A program made the position numbers and the translations under genes. Shown piece by piece: positions 58,687 through 64,000 of a stretch of 64,000 nt of DNA. Position 1 is the stretch's first letter, and each line of letters begins with the position of its first letter. The DNA is taken from NCBI GenBank assembly GCA_963774265.1, contig CAVZDU010000010.1:367289-431288 (forward strand). Direction: 5' to 3'. The stretch is from an uncultured Chloroflexia bacterium. Lineage in GTDB: Bacteria; Chloroflexota; Anaerolineae; CG2-30-64-16. Below the pieces are notes generated by a model. The model saw only the letters and a program-made list of their open reading frames with translations, had not been told where the DNA came from and did not search any database.

Positions 58687-59949
58687 CTACGTCGGCCCTG
58701 GCTGCGCGGCCGCTGTCAGCACCTGCCGGAACCGTGTGCACACGGAATCGGCATCGTGGGCCGCCAGGGCTAGCTGGCGCGCCCGGCGCCCCAACGCGGC
58801 GCGCGTTTCCTGCGATGCCATCAGCGCTTCGATAGCGCCGCGGAGCAGCGCTTGGTCGCGGCGTTCGACCACATAGCCCCAGCCTGCGTCCCGCGCATAG
58901 CGCACCGGTGGAACGTGCGCGGGGCCGTACACCAGGATGGGGGCGCCTGAAGCCATGTACTCAGGCACTTTTGTGGGCATGGAATACTGGGAGAATGCCA
59001 GGCTTTCAGGATCGAAGTTGACCGGCAAGACGAGCAAGTCGGCAGACGCCAGGCAGTTGCACAGATCGGGGCGGGCCACCGGGCCCGCAAATCGAACGGC
59101 TGCGAGCGCGCCAAGGTGATGGTCGTACACATCGCGGTAGATCTCGCCGCCATACACCGTGAGGTTGATCGCCGGACCTTGCGCCGCTATGAGCGAGATG
59201 GCCTGTGCAATATCCACCAGGCTGTGGAGCTGCAGGTTATGAGCCAGCGCTCCAAGATAGACAACCCGAAACTCTGTGCCTGACCGGGCGTAGTTGTCTT
59301 TCGGCGTGGACCAGTCTGCGCGATCGATCACATTGTGGAACGGAATGAATGAAGTTTCGTACCGTTTGGCGAAGGCCGCGGCCATCTCATCTGAGATCGC
59401 AAGGTTGTAACTGGCGCTGCCGAACAGCGCGGCCAACTGCCGCCGCAGGATCGGGACCATGATTTGCCTGTAGATCGGCGGCCATTCCTTCTTCACCGCG
59501 ACGGGCCAGTCGTCCATGATATGGTTGACCAGCGGCGCCTTGAGATCGCGAGAGAGCCAGCGCGGCAGCCACCACGTGTACATCGGATAGGGGGTCGCCT
59601 GGGAATAGATGACCTGAGGTCGGAATTCCTGGGCCCAAGCGCGAACCCTGGCGTAGGGCAGGCGAATCCCGGGACGTAGAATGGCTCGCGCCCATTTGAC
59701 GAGCGCCTGTTGCTGTCGGACCGTCTTGGGCACAAACGAGTCCCCCGGCATCCGATGCTCGCCCAGGTGCAGCGAGATGGAGCAGACCTCCGTGTCCAGG
59801 GAGAAGCGGTGGTGGGCCCATACCTGGGCAAGTGCCTCCTTGGGCCAACCCCGAAACAGGTTGCGCATGGTCACCCCGCCGCCTCCGATCGGGTTAATCG
59901 GCTCGTCGCAGAGTACCAGCACCCGCGGCAGTTGGTCCGAGTCAAGCAT
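58687..59949 (-). CDS. GT4 family glycosyltransferase
   Basis: HIMDDWP, ADLLVLPVNFD, SMPTKVPEYMASGAPIL. Confidence 0.85.
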   Translation of the reverse strand: MLDSDQLPRVLVLCDEPINPIGGGGVTMRNLFRGWPKEALAQVWAHHRFSLDTEVCSISLHLGEHRMPGDSFVPKTVRQQQALVKWARAILRPGIRLPYARVRAWAQEFRPQVIYSQATPYPMYTWWLPRWLSRDLKAPLVNHIMDDWPVAVKKEWPPIYRQIMVPILRRQLAALFGSASYNLAISDEMAAAFAKRYETSFIPFHNVIDRADWSTPKDNYARSGTEFRVVYLGALAHNLQLHSLVDIAQAISLIAAQGPAINLTVYGGEIYRDVYDHHLGALAAVRFAGPVARPDLCNCLASADLLVLPVNFDPESLAFSQYSMPTKVPEYMASGAPILVYGPAHVPPVRYARDAGWGYVVERRDQALLRGAIEALMASQETRAALGRRARQLALAAHDADSVCTRFRQVLTAAAQPGPT

Positions 59950-61004
59950 CAGTTGCCAACGCCTTCGCCTGTTCGGCCTCGATCATTTCGTCCACGATGT
60001 TATCTAATGTTCGTGTGATTCCCCAAGCCGGGTAGTCGGCTTGCAGACGCCGGAGGTCCGAGATGTAGCAGATGTGATCGCCCACCCGGTTCTTCTCATC
60101 ATAATGACAGTCGATGGGCCGGCCCAGGCGCGCCTCGATCATTTCGAAGGATTCGATCACCGATGCGCTGTTGCCGCGGCCGCCGCCCAGGTTGTAGACC
60201 GCGGCCACGCGAGGGGCTTTGATGAATTCCTCAAATGCGCGCACCACATCGTGGCTGTGGACCTGGTCCCGTACCTGTTTTCCCTTGTAGCCGAAGATGG
60301 TGTAGTGGCCCCCGCTGACGGCGACCTTGACCAGGTAGGAAAGGAAGCCGTGCAGCTCTACGCCGCTGTGGTTGGGGCCTGTTAAGCATCCGCCCCTGAA
60401 ACAGACCGTCGGCAACCCGAAATACCTGCCGTACTCCTGGACGAGCAGATCCGCGGCCGCTTTGCTGGCGCCGAAGACGCTGTGTGTGCTTTGATCAAGG
60501 CGGCAGGTCTCAGCGATGCCGTGGTAGTCCTCCTCGCGCGGCATACTCCCAGCGTGTTTCGAGCTCAACGAGCGGAAGCTCATTCGGCGCGTCGCCGTAC
60601 ACCTTATTGGTGCTCATGTAGACGAAGGGACTCTCGGGGCAGTGCTTGCGGGCCGCTTCCAACACGTTCACCGTTCCCACGACGTTGACGTCAAAGTCGT
60701 CCACCGGCCGCTGGTGCGACAGATCGTGCGAGGGTTGGGCCGCACAATGGATCACGGCATCCGGCCGATGCTCGATGAAGAAGCGGTCGACAGCCGACCG
60801 GTCGCGGAGGTCGATGTCAAAATGGCGAAAAGAGCGGGTGCTGGCTTGCAAGCGTTTGAGATTCCACCGGGTGTCGCCTTTCGGCCCGAAGAAGTCCATG
60901 CGCATGTTGTTGTCGATGCCATAGACGGCGTGCCCGAGTGCGTCGAAATACGTGACGGCTTCGGAGCCGATCAGACCACTCGAGCCGGTTACCAAAAGCC
61001 TCAT
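59942..61004 (-). CDS. NAD-dependent epimerase, CDP-paratose 2-epimerase-like (frameshift ~60540)
   Basis: [55 protein letters not shown]. Confidence 0.88.
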
Positions 61005-61030
61005 GAAACCTCCTTCGAAAATGATCTCGA

Positions 61031-62272
61031 TTACCCGGTTGGGACGGCGGCTGGCACCAGTTGGACCTGATAGCCCAGCTTCTCCAGGCGTTTGACGGCC
61101 CGCCGCTTCACAGCTTCACGGTCGCGCTCGTCGAAGTAGTTGCCGCCTAAGTCCTCGTACTTGGTTTGCCGAGTGATCAAGTAGTAGCCGGTGACCAGCA
61201 AGCTGTGCCCGACGGCCATTAGCGCCCGTTGTTTGCCCCGCCGGGCCGCCAGGCGCCCATAGAGCGCCTGGAAGTACTTGTGCTTGGTGCGGGCAGCGCC
61301 GTGCGCCGCTTCCACCAAGGCTCGCCGCAGCCAGGGACTGCCTTTGCGGGTCTTGCCACTGTAGCGTTTGCCGGCACTTTCGTTGTTGCCGGGACACATG
61401 CCCGCCCACGAAGCCAGATGCTCCGCATCCTCGAACGGCTGCAGGTCGGCCCCAATCTCAGCGACGACGATCTCCGCAATCCGCTGGTTGATCCCCGGCA
61501 GCGAGTCCCAGGCCGCCAGCGCCGGCGCAAAAGGGTGCATCTGCTCCGCGATCTGCTGGTCGAGCCGGTCGATGGCCTCGTCCAAGAAGTCGATGTGGCT
61601 CAGGTGTTGCGCCAACATGAAGCGATGATGCGCCTGCACGCGTCCACTTAGCGCCTTCTGCAGCAGGTCCAGCTTGTCCCGCAGGCGACCCTTGGCCAGC
61701 TCGGCTAACACGGCTGGATCGGCCTGGCCTTGCACGATCTGATCCAGCATCGCTCGTCCGCTGACACCCATCACATCGGTCGCCACGCTCGCCAGCTTGA
61801 TGTTGGCGTCTTCCAGCACCTTCTGCACCCGATTGATCTCACTGACGCGCTCATCGCCCAGCTTGGTGCGATAGCGAGTCAGATCGCGTAACGCACGTAG
61901 CTCAGCCGAAGGAATGAAGCTCCCTTTGAGCAGCCCGTGCCGCAGCAGGTCCGCAATCCGCTCCGCATCTTGCACATCCGTCTTGCGGCCAGCTAACGCC
62001 TTGATGTGCTCTGCATTGACCACCAGAATGGCAAACCGCCCGTCGAGCAGGTTGTACACCGGCTTCCAGTACACCCCGGTGCTCTCCATCGCCACGTGCG
62101 TGACCCCAAGGCCCTGCAACCATTCCGCCAGTGCTTCCAGGTTCTCGGTCAAGGTATCAAACGTGCGGGTCTCCTTCACCGATTGCCCATCCGGCCCAGG
62201 CACGATCGCACACGCCACCACCGTGCGCTTGTGCACATCGATCCCGCAGCACCGCTCATAGACCACTTGCAT
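61031..62272 (-). CDS. IS110-family DEDD transposase/recombinase (413 aa)
   Basis: [40 protein letters not shown]. Confidence 0.95.
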
Positions 62273-62294
62273 CGTGCGCCTCCGCTTGCTCGTG

Positions 62295-62450
62295 ATCGCC
62301 CCAGCGGAGTGCCTGATATGCGAAGAGTCTCCTTCGCGTACTCCCCCAAATTGGAGGGCCACAGTCTACGGTGCCTGCAGGCACTCGAGCCAAACTCCCT
62401 TGCGGACTCGTGGCACCAGGTAATTCATCCGACTTCATGCCAGGGCGTCT
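62295..62450 (-). ncRNA. Putative bridge RNA of IS110 copy 1
   Basis: Non-coding scaffold conserved with copy 2; stem GAGTGCCTG/CAGGCACTC (62307-62315/62378-62386); guide-like variable segments match the element end and flanks. Confidence 0.7.
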
Positions 62451-62455
62451 CCACC

Positions 62456-62483
62456 ATTCTACGCCCCCATTTTCATCCGTCAA
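62456..62483 (-). promoter_or_regulatory. Promoter in the IS110 upstream end, pointing into the putative bridge RNA and transposase
   Basis: TTGACG-16 bp-TAGAAT on the minus strand; TAGAAT also present in copy 2 (63950-63955). Confidence 0.6.
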
Positions 62484-62527
62484 CGGTGAGCCAACGGCTA
62501 ATCAGCAACTCCCTTGAAAATGACCTG

Positions 62528-63769
62528 TTACCCGGCTGGGGCAGCGGTCGGCGCCAAGTCGACCCGGTAGCCGAGCTTCTCCAAACGGCGTACAGCTCGG
62601 CGCTTGACTGCCTCACGGTCGCGTTCGTCGAAGTAGTTGCCGCCCAGGTCCTGGTAGGTCGTCTGCCGAGTGATCAGGTAGTAGCCGGTGACCAGTAAGC
62701 TGTGCCCGACGGCGACTGCTGCCCGCTGTTTGCCTCGCCGGGCGGCCAGGCGGCGATAGAGCGCCTGAAAGTACTTGTCTTTGGTGTGGGCGGCGCCATG
62801 TGCGGCTTCGATGAGCGCTCGCCGCAACCAGGGACTGCCTTTGCGGGTGCGACCACTCTTGCGCTTGCCCGCACTTTCGTTGTTGCCGGGACACATGCCG
62901 GCCCAGGAGGCCAGGTGATCCGCATCCTCGAAAGGCTGCAGGTCGGCCCCGATCTCGGCGACGATGATCTCAGCGATGCGCTGGTTGATGCCCGGCAGCG
63001 AGTCCCATGTCGCCAAGGCCGCCGCAAAAGGGCGCATCTGCTCCTCGATCTGCTGATCGAGTTGGGCGATTGCTTCATCCAGAAAGTCGATGTGGCTCAG
63101 ATGCTGGGCCAGCATGAAGCGATGATGCGGCCGCACCCGCCCGCTCAACGCCTTCAGCAACAGGTCTTGCTTGTCGCGCAGGCGACCTTTCGCCAACTCA
63201 GCCAAGATGGCGGGATCGGTTTGGCCCCCGACGATCTGGTCCAGCATCGCCCGCCCGCTGACGCCCATCACGTCGGTGGCCACACTGGCCAGCTTGATGT
63301 TGGCGTCTTCCAACACCTTCTGCACCCGGTTGACCTCGCTCTTGCGCTCATCGCCCAACTTCGTGCGATAGCGCGTCAGGTCGCGCAACTCGCGCAAGAC
63401 CTGTGAGGGGATGAAGCTGCCCTTCAGCATCCCGTGGCGCAACAGGTCCGCGATCCACTCCGCATCCTGCACGTCCGTCTTGCGCCCAGCCAAGGCCTTG
63501 ATGTGCTCGGCATTCACCACCAGGATGGCGAAACGCCCGTCCAGCAGGTTGAACACCGGCTTCCAGTACACCCCGGTGCTCTCCATCGCCACGTGCGTCA
63601 CCCCAAGCCCCTGCAACCAGCCCGCCAGCGCCTCCAGGTTCTCAGTCATCGTCGCAAAGGTCCGGGTCTCCTTCACCGGTTGACCGTCCGCCCCCGGCAC
63701 GATCGCACACGCCACCACGGTCTGCTTGTGGACATCGATCCCGCAGCAGCGCTCATACACCACTTGCAT
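62528..63769 (-). CDS. IS110-family DEDD transposase/recombinase (413 aa)
   Basis: Same motifs and length as copy 1, but diverged. Confidence 0.95.
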   Translation of the reverse strand: MQVVYERCCGIDVHKQTVVACAIVPGADGQPVKETRTFATMTENLEALAGWLQGLGVTHVAMESTGVYWKPVFNLLDGRFAILVVNAEHIKALAGRKTDVQDAEWIADLLRHGMLKGSFIPSQVLRELRDLTRYRTKLGDERKSEVNRVQKVLEDANIKLASVATDVMGVSGRAMLDQIVGGQTDPAILAELAKGRLRDKQDLLLKALSGRVRPHHRFMLAQHLSHIDFLDEAIAQLDQQIEEQMRPFAAALATWDSLPGINQRIAEIIVAEIGADLQPFEDADHLASWAGMCPGNNESAGKRKSGRTRKGSPWLRRALIEAAHGAAHTKDKYFQALYRRLAARRGKQRAAVAVGHSLLVTGYYLITRQTTYQDLGGNYFDERDREAVKRRAVRRLEKLGYRVDLAPTAAPAG

Positions 63770-63789
63770 GGCTCACCCCCGCTGATCTC

Positions 63790-63945
63790 GATCGCTCCAG
63801 CGGAGTGCCTGATCATCGAAGAATCTCCCTTGCGTGCTTTCCCCTGGCGGGGCGCAACAGTCAGCGGTGCCTGCAGGCACTCAAGCCAAACTCCTTACGG
63901 ACTCGTGGCACCAGGTAAACATCCGACTTCGCACTGGAGCGTCAC
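63790..63945 (-). ncRNA. Putative bridge RNA of IS110 copy 2
   Basis: Homologous scaffold to 62295-62450 with different guide segments. Confidence 0.7.
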
Positions 63946-64000
63946 TCGTATTCTACCCATTTTCATCGCGCAGCGGTGAGCCTTGGCTCATAGACAACTC

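Follow-up and report, generated by a model that had tools for sequence, protein, structure and literature searches.

The last 3 kilobases of the window (the whole 64,000-nucleotide stretch of contig CAVZDU010000010.1 from an uncultured Chloroflexia bacterium that was analysed here, to whose positions all coordinates refer) contain two insertion sequences of the IS110 family, which lie head to tail on the minus strand. Our analysis makes it very probable that they belong to a sub-lineage of the IS110 group that is guided by a bridge RNA and has the translation-initiation region of genes as its natural target. This proposal is based on the family membership of the elements, the covariation of the RNA scaffold, the covariation of the guides with the flanks and with the element ends, the statistics of the insertion sites and one empty site. 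Insertion between a Shine-Dalgarno sequence (SD) and a start codon is already known for the IS110-family elements IS900 and IS901; what is new here is a guide RNA as the basis of the preference, together with the co-directional arrangement, a rebuilt ribosome-binding site (RBS), the miniature elements and the stacking in tandem.

According to the mechanism that we propose, the left end of the element would encode a bridge RNA about 160 nucleotides (nt) long, which has a pair of internal loops. In loop 1, the 3' side would spell an SD and correspond to the left flank, and the 5' side would be antisense to the core, the spacer and the CAT of the start codon; loop 2 would contain, on its 3' side, the element's own right end, which is likewise SD-like. 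Recombination at the core dinucleotide shared by both loops would place the element, in the same direction as the gene, between its SD and its ATG. The left end would then be preceded by the old SD, and the right end ..GGAG would come to stand at the old SD distance from the ATG.

The two elements and their transposase genes were delimited as follows.

61010-62508, minus strand: copy 1, a 'type 1' IS110-family element of 1499 base pairs (bp) including one core dinucleotide, with limits taken from the 99.5% identical copies C3 and C5
62509-63997, minus strand: copy 2, a 'type 2' IS110-family element of 1489 bp, with limits from copy comparison
61031-62272, minus strand: transposase (recombinase) gene of copy 1, 413 amino acids (aa), matching Pfam PF01548 and PF02371 and NCBIfam NF033542
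62528-63769, minus strand: transposase gene of copy 2, 413 aa, with the same Pfam and NCBIfam matches

Similarity between copy 1 and the copies C3 and C5 ends at GGAG/TTG on the left and at ..CGAAGGAG/ on the right (a slash marks the junction here and below). Copy 1 thus delimited has a left end of 236 nt (62273-62508), a right end of 21 nt past the stop codon (61010-61030) and no long terminal inverted repeats. Both transposases contain the Pfam domains DEDD_Tnp_IS110 (PF01548, E 1e-32) and Transposase_20 (PF02371, E 4e-20), and against the NCBIfam model 'IS110 family RNA-guided transposase' (NF033542, cut-off 140) they score 274.8 bits (copy 1) and 285.1 bits (copy 2). The copy 1 protein, which alone was aligned, is related to the IS621 recombinase (chain 8wt6_A, phmmer E 7e-17) and keeps the equivalents of IS621 D11, E60, D102, D105 and S241 in the motifs GID, mEStG, KTDvqDA and nnESaG (8wt6_A numbering +2); the catalytic roles of these residues are described in the available part of PMC11208158. 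Judged from their sequences, the two elements are members of the IS110 group of bridge-RNA-guided insertion sequences. Identity between the copies is 89% in protein and only 82.5% in DNA, and because of the latter value the tandem is not an assembly duplication.

For the analysis of the left ends, relatives were gathered from genomes of the same taxonomic family and class, by a left-end pattern scan, by a protein scan of metagenome contigs and from the genome carrying the window (G000). The pattern scan, with one genome per species, gave 37 loci, and the protein scan gave 80 loci at 55-96% amino-acid identity. Among 73 distinct left-end RNAs, 71 (185-275 nt, one of them from the unpublished genome G370) could be aligned, and 32 of these were also aligned independently with MAFFT. 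Nineteen RNAs whose transposase shows at least 66% amino-acid identity to that of copy 1 are referred to as the close lineage, the other 52 as the wider clade. In copy 1 the left end contains the following features.

62287-62449, minus strand: predicted bridge RNA of about 163 nt with an outer stem, loop 1 (target) and loop 2 (donor), its ends deduced from the promoter and the outer stem
62456-62483, minus strand: sigma-70-like promoter TTGACG-16-TAGAAT, agreeing with 10 of 12 consensus positions

The promoter is a consensus match only, and the sole one in 60900-64000. The original prediction, which was made by eye from the letters of the window, had described the non-coding end upstream of each gene as a conserved scaffold with short variable segments. 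Indeed, four inner helices covary: in the MAFFT alignment 93.0% of their positions are paired, compared with 78.5% after shuffling (0 of 500 shuffles as good) and 25-53% in slid controls, and changes on both sides occur in 17 of 21 pairs, figures which are somewhat favoured because alignment and structure were derived from the same sequences. In the 71-sequence alignment the closing stem of loop 1 (AGUC/GGCU) is 95% canonical with both-side changes in 4 of 4 pairs, the small inner hairpin UGG/CCG is canonical in 212 of 213 cases, the 9-bp closing stem of loop 2 in 583 of 620 with both-side changes in 9 of 9 pairs, and the distal hairpin of loop 2 has both-side changes in 5 of 5 pairs. The outer stem is 89% canonical among the 19 close-lineage RNAs, and the scaffold as a whole is kept down to 46% protein identity. 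One pair is U-G in 67 of the 71 RNAs, and since G-U pairs are valid on one strand only, the RNA strand is the transposase-sense strand. The left end is thus predicted to encode a bridge RNA of about 160 nt, with a scaffold that is borne out by covariation and an expression that is presumed.

Two further pairings were considered and rejected. The long-range pairing GGUGCC/GGCACC, which would form a pseudoknot, is 88% canonical against 87% expected in the 71 sequences, and 93.2% against 91.6% in the MAFFT alignment, with both-side changes in 3 cells; its support being too weak, the nested model was kept. A local hairpin GUGCC/GGCAC was unsupported in the 71-sequence alignment.

Within this scaffold the variable segments of the two copies were assigned to the following guides.

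62395-62402, minus strand: SD-side guide for the target in copy 1, CAAGGGAG, from the 3' side of loop 1; it equals the left flanks TCAAGGGAG of C3 and GAAGGGAG of C5 as well as the right end of copy 2
62418-62428, minus strand: ATG-side guide for the target in copy 1, AUGAAUUACCU, from the 5' side of loop 1; it is antisense to core and right flank
62329-62336, minus strand: donor guide of copy 1, CGAAGGAG, from the 3' side of loop 2; it has the same sequence as the right end of this copy (61010-61017)
63891-63897, minus strand: SD-side target guide of copy 2 (UAAGGAG), from the string quoted in the original prediction and the guide table
63913-63922, minus strand: ATG-side target guide of copy 2 (AUGUUUACCU), from the same two sources

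On the plus strand these segments read ctcccttg (62395-62402), aggtaattcat (62418-62428), ctcctta (63891-63897) and aggtaaacat (63913-63922); all guide and junction strings quoted in the original prediction are present where it had placed them. The UU at 62393-62394 agrees with the initial dinucleotide of the left end, in the fashion of a handshake guide.

These relations recur throughout the clade. The left flank, up to the junction, is repeated in 8-9 nt on the 3' side of loop 1. In 57 of 68 cases (a partly circular count) the 2 nt that follow this guide are also those with which the left end begins, and 8 nt of the 3' side of loop 2 equal the right end of the element. The donor guide follows the right end when this changes, as in copy 2, which has CAAGGGAG both at 63825-63832 and at 62509-62516. 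The core, i.e., the last two bases of the target and donor guides, agrees between the loops in 70 of 71 RNAs (AG in 56, AA in 12, AC in 2), and in the wider clade the variable 5' segment of loop 1 is antisense to core and right flank. An example of the covariation is the guide CCAACAAUG with the flank CCAACAATG as compared with the guide CCAGCAGUG with the flank CCAGCAGTG. The relation of guide to flank was found again in C3 and C5, in 10 copies of the genome G024 and in dozens of metagenome and genome loci, and is therefore more than chance. In permutation tests with 5000 shuffles (the row of L053, with a mis-assigned right end, was dropped; the left-side counts are partly circular for the reason given further below), matches of guides to their own flanks were as follows.

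Wider clade, left side: 281 of 399 matches, shuffled mean 116.5, 0 of 5000 shuffles as good
Wider clade, right side (+1 to +4): 113 of 196, shuffled mean 60.6, 0 of 5000 as good
Close lineage, left side: 130 of 182, shuffled mean 97.4, 0 of 5000 as good
Close lineage, right side in fixed register: 31 of 88, shuffled mean 27.6, 951 of 5000 as good

The covariation of guides and flanks that the original prediction had expected thus held on the SD side and, in the close lineage, failed on the ATG side in fixed register. For the left-end-side donor guide (5' side of loop 2), comparison of ..GACUGU.. and its neighbours with the starts of the left ends gave no clean covariation by eye.

The same data bear on the question of whether the protein, and not the RNA, picks the target. 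In that case the recombinase would read CATG..CTCC, and left ends and flanks would resemble each other only incidentally. Donor and target are indeed similar, since a (C)ATG is conserved at 5-8 nt from the left tip and the right end contains a CAT, and for ISPpu10 the available part of a recent report describes an extra determinant beyond base pairing (bioRxiv 10.64898/2026.03.19.712850). However, across the 71 RNAs changes in the guide segments are accompanied by changes in the flanks and the right end, while scaffold and protein family remain constant, and the structure covaries as RNA, including G-U pairs that are only possible on the transposase-sense strand. We consider a protein-read target most improbable.

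Several observations on the element tips may be added here. The (C)ATG near the left tip and the CAT of the right end (CATTTTC) occur clade-wide and look like a short subterminal inverted repeat. Left ends start with TTGTCT ATG AGC.. (copy 2 at 63960-63997; type 3, e.g., L031:2243-2290), copy 1 having ATT in place of this ATG. In types 2 and 3 the ATG opens an open reading frame (ORF) of 12 codons that ends at the TAG of the -10 box, and after insertion the displaced host SD stands 6 nt before it. In 3 of 10 left flanks of the type 3 copies of G024 a CAT is present at -13 to -11 from the junction, near the spacing of the right-end CAT, which may be chance or a position read by the protein.

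The guides of the close lineage stand out by their SD-like sequence. The target guide ends in GGAG in 18 of the 19 close-lineage RNAs and in 6 of the 52 of the wider clade, the donor guide in 17 of 19 and 9 of 52, respectively. Wider-clade targets are palindromic repeats (e.g., L029/L030), other motifs and the right ends of siblings. The genome G024 contains 10 identical 'type 3' copies with the guide GUCAGGAG, and the left flanks listed for them are ..TCAGGAG (5), CCAGGAG (2), ACAGGAG and three ..AAGGAG. Miniature derivatives of about 70 bp and of 145-176 bp, in which the left-end hairpin and a promoter remnant are fused to the right end ..ATTTTCAAGGGAG, were found between ..AGGAG and ATG in records titled Anaerolineae, Chloroflexota and Candidatus Amarolinea. 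Ten miniature loci (L041, L044, L052, L055, L056, L057, L062, L063, L064 and L066) lie before ordinary genes (cyclase, VKOR, LMWPc, heparinase-like), and L062 has two miniatures in tandem.

For the close lineage and the miniatures together, 43 right-end events were listed, and five corrections by hand (L083:2212 removed as spurious, L082 merged with L045 as one site, L088 re-classed as tandem, L053 and an element-to-miniature junction in L083 added) led to 5 tandem and 38 non-tandem events. An ATG is present at +3 to +9 past the element end in 36 of the 38 independent non-tandem insertions, at a distance of 6 nt in 20 of these; the two exceptions are L045, with GTG at +4, and L051, a miniature in a Bryobacterales record, with none. 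In the wider clade the proportion is 10 of 48. Behind 29 of the 38 insertions the ORF has at least 75 codons or is still open at the end of the stored DNA. The downstream ORFs are real genes, 13 of 20 matching Pfam families (LGT, PPK2, ADH, URO-D, cyclase, LMWPc, OppC, VKOR, AsnC and others); most of these matches start at profile positions 1-11. In every case the transposase is co-directional with the downstream gene. In one locus (L090:1104-2253) a member of the lineage lies in the RBS of a gene for a distantly related IS110-family transposase (Transposase_20, weak DEDD_Tnp_IS110).

As background, sites of guide-like motifs were counted in G000, where 12-24% have an ATG at +3 to +9 over all motifs tried, among them the following.

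CAAGGGAG: 16 of 109 sites with ATG at +3 to +9
AAGGGAG: 63 of 303 sites
TCAGGAG: 108 of 693 sites
AAGGAG: 569 of 2408 sites

The flanks of homologous copies, which had been suggested as a check, are hence clearly enriched in SD plus ATG, and the claim that this lineage targets RBSs has come through the comparison; insertion of the other copies at sites unrelated to RBSs, which would have spoken against it, was not what we observed.

In G000 there are four full copies and one truncated left end in total; copy 1, C3 and C5 (~99.5% identical) are type 1. In transposase sense, C5 has the left junction ..CAAGAAGGGAG/TTGTCGATTAGCC and the right junction ..TTTTCGAAGGAG/GTCAGC ATG, and C3 has ..TTCATCAAGGGAG/TTGCTGATTAGCC and ..CGAAGGAG/TCATCC ATG, respectively. 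Copy 1 adjoins on its left the right end ..TTTTCAAGGGAG/ of copy 2, and its right junction ..CGAAGGAG/GTTTC ATG is followed by an epimerase gene. With regard to the core, the junctions thus read GGAG/TTG.. on the left and ..GGAG/flank on the right. The gene downstream of C3 is lgt (Pfam LGT, E 2e-73), for which a congener (G002) has an uninterrupted orthologue reading ..ATTCATCAAGGGGG TCGTCC ATGAAC... Its occupied counterpart in G000 reads ..ATTCATCAAGGGAG, then the 1499-bp element, then TCATCC ATGAAT.., and this empty site shows that insertion is precise. In two further genomes (G006 and G003) the RBS of lgt is an unoccupied CAAGGGAG-N5-ATG.

At lgt, GAAGGAG takes the place of AAGGGAG with unchanged spacing to the ATG. 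At the window site, the minus-strand sequence of 61002-61021 is TTTTCGAAGGAG/GTTTCATG, in which the epimerase-family ORF has its start codon at 61002-61004 (CAT on the plus strand). The two features concerned are given below.

61002-61017, minus strand: rebuilt RBS of the epimerase gene, made up of the element end CGAAGGAG (61010-61017), the host spacer GTTTC (61005-61009) and the ATG (61002-61004)
59942-61004, minus strand: downstream NAD-dependent epimerase/dehydratase gene in two overlapping ORFs (60510-61004 and 59942-60583), both matching Pfam Epimerase

The original prediction, according to which the element lies in the RBS of the epimerase gene and supplies its SD, agrees with this composition, as does its claim that the SD would be restored on insertion, since the right end offers ..GGAG at the same ATG spacing. 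Because the crossover would take place at the shared AG and the right end reads ..GGAG, the downstream ATG would keep an SD at the same distance. The stop codon of the copy 1 transposase lies 26 nt upstream of the epimerase ATG, and no terminator-like site was found on the minus strand of 60900-64000. With ..GGAG near the ATG and no such site, the downstream gene would retain its SD and be readable as the next cistron, so that its translation presumably continues after insertion. The two epimerase ORFs cover positions 2-144 and 127-240 of the Pfam Epimerase profile, the split near 60510-60583 being either a frameshift or a sequencing indel.

Each insertion leaves two SD-like junctions, one of host SD and left end and one of right end and host spacer with ATG, and so relatives can stack. 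The right end of copy 2, CAAGGGAG (62509-62516), forms the left flank of copy 1; most likely, to judge from these junctions, copy 2 entered the RBS of the epimerase gene first and copy 1 afterwards entered the rebuilt site. Further stacking was found in L079 and L091, which lie behind another right end, and in L080, L083, L088 and L062. In the wider clade, 14 of 46 distinct left flanks resemble sibling right ends (TTTTCA....AG), e.g., in L077, L104, L116, L127, L137 and L156, and stacking behind relatives seems to be common across the whole clade.

Stacking raises the question of whether the right ends of siblings and miniatures are the primary target, RBSs being look-alike secondary targets because these right ends are purine-rich. 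Copy 2, type 3 and most miniatures indeed have a right end with the very sequence of the type 1 guide, CAAGGGAG, and copy 1, L079 and L091 stand directly behind such a right end. Tandem events make up 5 of the 43 lineage events, and in the wider clade 14 of 46 left flanks are sibling-like. Nevertheless, 38 of the 43 lineage events are at host sites. All 10 type 3 copies (guide UCAGGAG) are at host sites with flanks that track their own guide and not the CAAGGGAG right end, and two of the three type 1 copies in G000 are at native RBSs, one of which is confirmed by the empty site. We therefore regard a primary preference for sibling ends as improbable and retain translation-initiation regions as the natural target.

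The truncated left end in G000 (C2:601496-601680, plus strand) carries the bridge-RNA scaffold and is about 86% like copy 2. It has the variable 5' guide AUGCUCUGUUU, the SD-side guide UAAGGAG and the left flank CTCTGGAAGGAG, is cut off after the loop 2 guide and is followed by unrelated sequence. The contig of the window, C10 of a 10-contig genome, stops at 64000, 3 nt past the left end of copy 2, the left flank of which is known as GAG only. The assembly probably broke here at the repeated element; beyond 64000 there may be another copy or else the original SD. In the same genome the last 60 nt of contig C8 consist of a repeated pentamer, (TGGAA)n, and after it long stretches of T and of A, which looks like an assembly artefact or foreign sequence.

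Several points weigh against targeting of translation-initiation regions by a bridge RNA. A scan of 60800-64000 against Rfam 15 gave no match at E up to 1, whether Rfam includes a bridge-RNA family being unchecked, and the single-sequence fold of the copy 1 RNA is no better than shuffles (z = -1.14). The contigs of four RNA libraries contain short pieces, 85-99% alike and mostly of relatives, of the transposase gene and of left-end parts; they carry no start, strand or level, and DNA carry-over is possible. The left-end boundary was put where the guide matched best (with 2 mismatches at most), and because of this placement the left-flank and handshake counts are partly circular; independent support for the boundary comes from its constant distance to the conserved left-end hairpin. 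The motif background was taken from G000 only and not from each host genome. Right ends of SD-like sequence occur in 9 of 52 relatives that do not target SDs, and the rebuilt RBS may consequently be inherited and not an adaptation. Behind 7 of the 36 ATGs there are closed ORFs of 2-49 codons. At three such sites (L043:5948, L139:870 and L062:3035) the ATG stands at the usual distance and is followed by a stop after 5, 2 and 10 codons, respectively. Either the ATG itself matters for targeting at the short-ORF sites, or these are leader peptides, or they are due to indel errors.

The remaining points against it concern the ATG-side guide, whose match to the site the original prediction had already called imperfect. 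In the close lineage and in fixed register, own flanks match this guide no better than shuffled ones. A core-anchored alignment that allows bulges, which is a second scheme tried once the fixed-register test had failed and in which several sites share one guide and are thus not independent, scored own flanks at 95.0 as compared with 77.7 ± 5.7 (2 of 3000 shuffles as good) for 17 non-tandem sites and 8 guides, at 111.5 as compared with 94.3 (6 of 3000) for all 21 sites, and at 237 as compared with 149.8 (0 of 3000) for the wider clade. Compared with random ATG-bearing SD-like sites of G000, the bulged scores were 6.17 versus 4.54 for type 3, the background of which was thus not from its own host, and 6.33 versus 3.54 for type 1 (12 of 10000 resamples each). 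The ATG-side guide thus appears to fit its own flanks in the close lineage only if small bulges are allowed.

Another explanation is that only the SD half is recognised, as a half-site of 7-8 nt plus the core. The ATG would then reflect survivorship, insertions within genes being lost and those in RBSs being tolerated as the right end restores the SD. The negative fixed-register test is in line with this, as are the spacing to the ATG, which varies from 3 to 9 nt, and the fact that in G000 SD-like motifs are commoner before starts than elsewhere. Moreover, for IS621 the available part of a recent report describes recombination with only half of the bridge RNA matched (bioRxiv 10.64898/2026.08.31.748434). 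On the other hand, among the identical, hence recent, copies of G024 all 9 with the right flank present lie before an ATG (10 copies in all), and none is found at the ~85% of guide-like motif sites that have no ATG. The seven sites with an ATG at the right distance and a short ORF are not expected from selection for intact genes either, and the gapped score favours own guides. We consider recognition of the SD half alone rather unlikely, and recognition of the whole translation-initiation region the better explanation of the sites.

A comparison with IS621, for which we refer to the accessible parts of the published descriptions, shows many features in common. The elements studied here share with IS621 a recombinase with DEDD RuvC-like and Tnp domains and five aligned catalytic residues, and a non-coding RNA in a long left end upstream of the recombinase gene (Durrant et al. 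2024, PMC11208160). In both, the RNA has one internal loop for the target followed by another for the donor, with the two sides of a loop pairing with opposite DNA strands, and a core dinucleotide is common to both loops (70 of 71 here). The IS621 handshake bases are placed after the 3'-side guide (Hiraizumi et al. 2024, PMC11208158), and here the two bases past the 3' guide of loop 1 match the other DNA partner, as those handshake guides do. Unlike in IS621, the core is AG on the transposase-sense strand (CT on the opposite strand), and under the IS621 rule, in which the 5' side is the left guide, our RNA can be accommodated only with an inversion of the RNA and transposase genes with respect to the core. 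With the core read as CT, the 5' side becomes the left target guide (C)AUG..CU and the 3' side the right target guide ..AAGGGAG, and the UU that follows pairs with the donor after exchange. Here the guides on the 3' sides are long (8-9 nt) and match well and those on the 5' sides are short and loose, whereas the IS621 text, in the part available, has the reverse. The target here is a generic functional motif, to which a genome offers thousands of near-matches, and in that text a repeat such as a repetitive extragenic palindromic (REP) sequence. In addition, the left arms of donor and target are alike beyond the core in our elements, in which IS621 differs.

With respect to the insertion site, the closest known systems are IS900 and IS901 of Mycobacterium avium, IS110-family elements for which insertion between SD and start codon has been reported since 1997 (Doran et al. 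1997 and, for IS901, Inglis 2003, as cited in PMC2942039). The same placement was found here in 36 of 38 insertions and at one empty site. The target consensus of IS900 is reportedly CATGN4-6/CNCCTT, and the window site, which on the plus strand is CATG-AAAC/CTCCTT, fits the consensus in this form. IS900 also has the hed ORF, which is complementary to the transposase strand and spans the element without an RBS or start codon of its own (available part of PMC8141618); as hed lies on the complementary strand and uses host signals, the IS900 transposase would be antiparallel to the targeted gene. In our elements, by contrast, the transposase is co-directional with the gene, a distinction drawn from the description of IS900 and not from its sequence, and the antisense ORFs (140-234 aa, the longest 230-234) span no element. 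The hosts also differ, being Chloroflexota here and not Actinomycetota. A rebuilt RBS, miniatures and a bridge-RNA explanation do not appear in the accessible descriptions of IS900 and IS901. In the literature we found no paper that links bridge RNAs to SD targeting or to IS900, and the supplementary natural-target tables of Durrant et al. may list SD-like targets.

Orientation- and sequence-specific insertion at short motifs that recur in the genome connects our elements with the IS110/IS1111 elements that target REP sequences and attC sites, and the wider clade behaves in this way at palindromic repeats (L029/L030). Elements of this kind with REP, attC and inverted-repeat targets are said to have been described by Tobes and Pareja in 2006, by Partridge and Hall in 2003 and by Post and Hall in 2009. 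In contrast to the REP- and attC-targeting elements, the motif here is a translation signal before genes, which insertion would reconstitute.

Taken further, the results permit a broader reading, which we put forward tentatively and hold at somewhat less than an even chance. A clade in Chloroflexota may use an SD-mimicking guide that gives it thousands of potential sites per genome and may read the second half-site (spacer and CAT) tolerantly, with bulges, the right end serving as a portable RBS. Full elements and miniatures of 70-190 bp could then enter operons without polarity, regenerate their targets and pile up, with translation starts as a kind of 'safe-harbour', and the RNA and transposase genes would be inverted relative to the core as compared with IS621 and, by the literature, with IS900.

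A guide RNA that spells an SD would give a molecular reading of the site preference of IS900 and IS901, which was described in 1997-2003, before bridge RNAs were known. It would also be a natural bridge RNA aimed at a generic functional signal and not at a unique or repeat sequence. The second half-site is possibly read loosely, and this, together with a generic target, bears on the off-target rules for bridge recombinases in genome editing. Such elements also break assemblies, as is seen from contig C10, which ends at one. If the right end reinstates the RBS, these elements would be nearly neutral passengers in operons, with miniatures before housekeeping genes, and, if this is true, translation-initiation regions would moreover vary through them.

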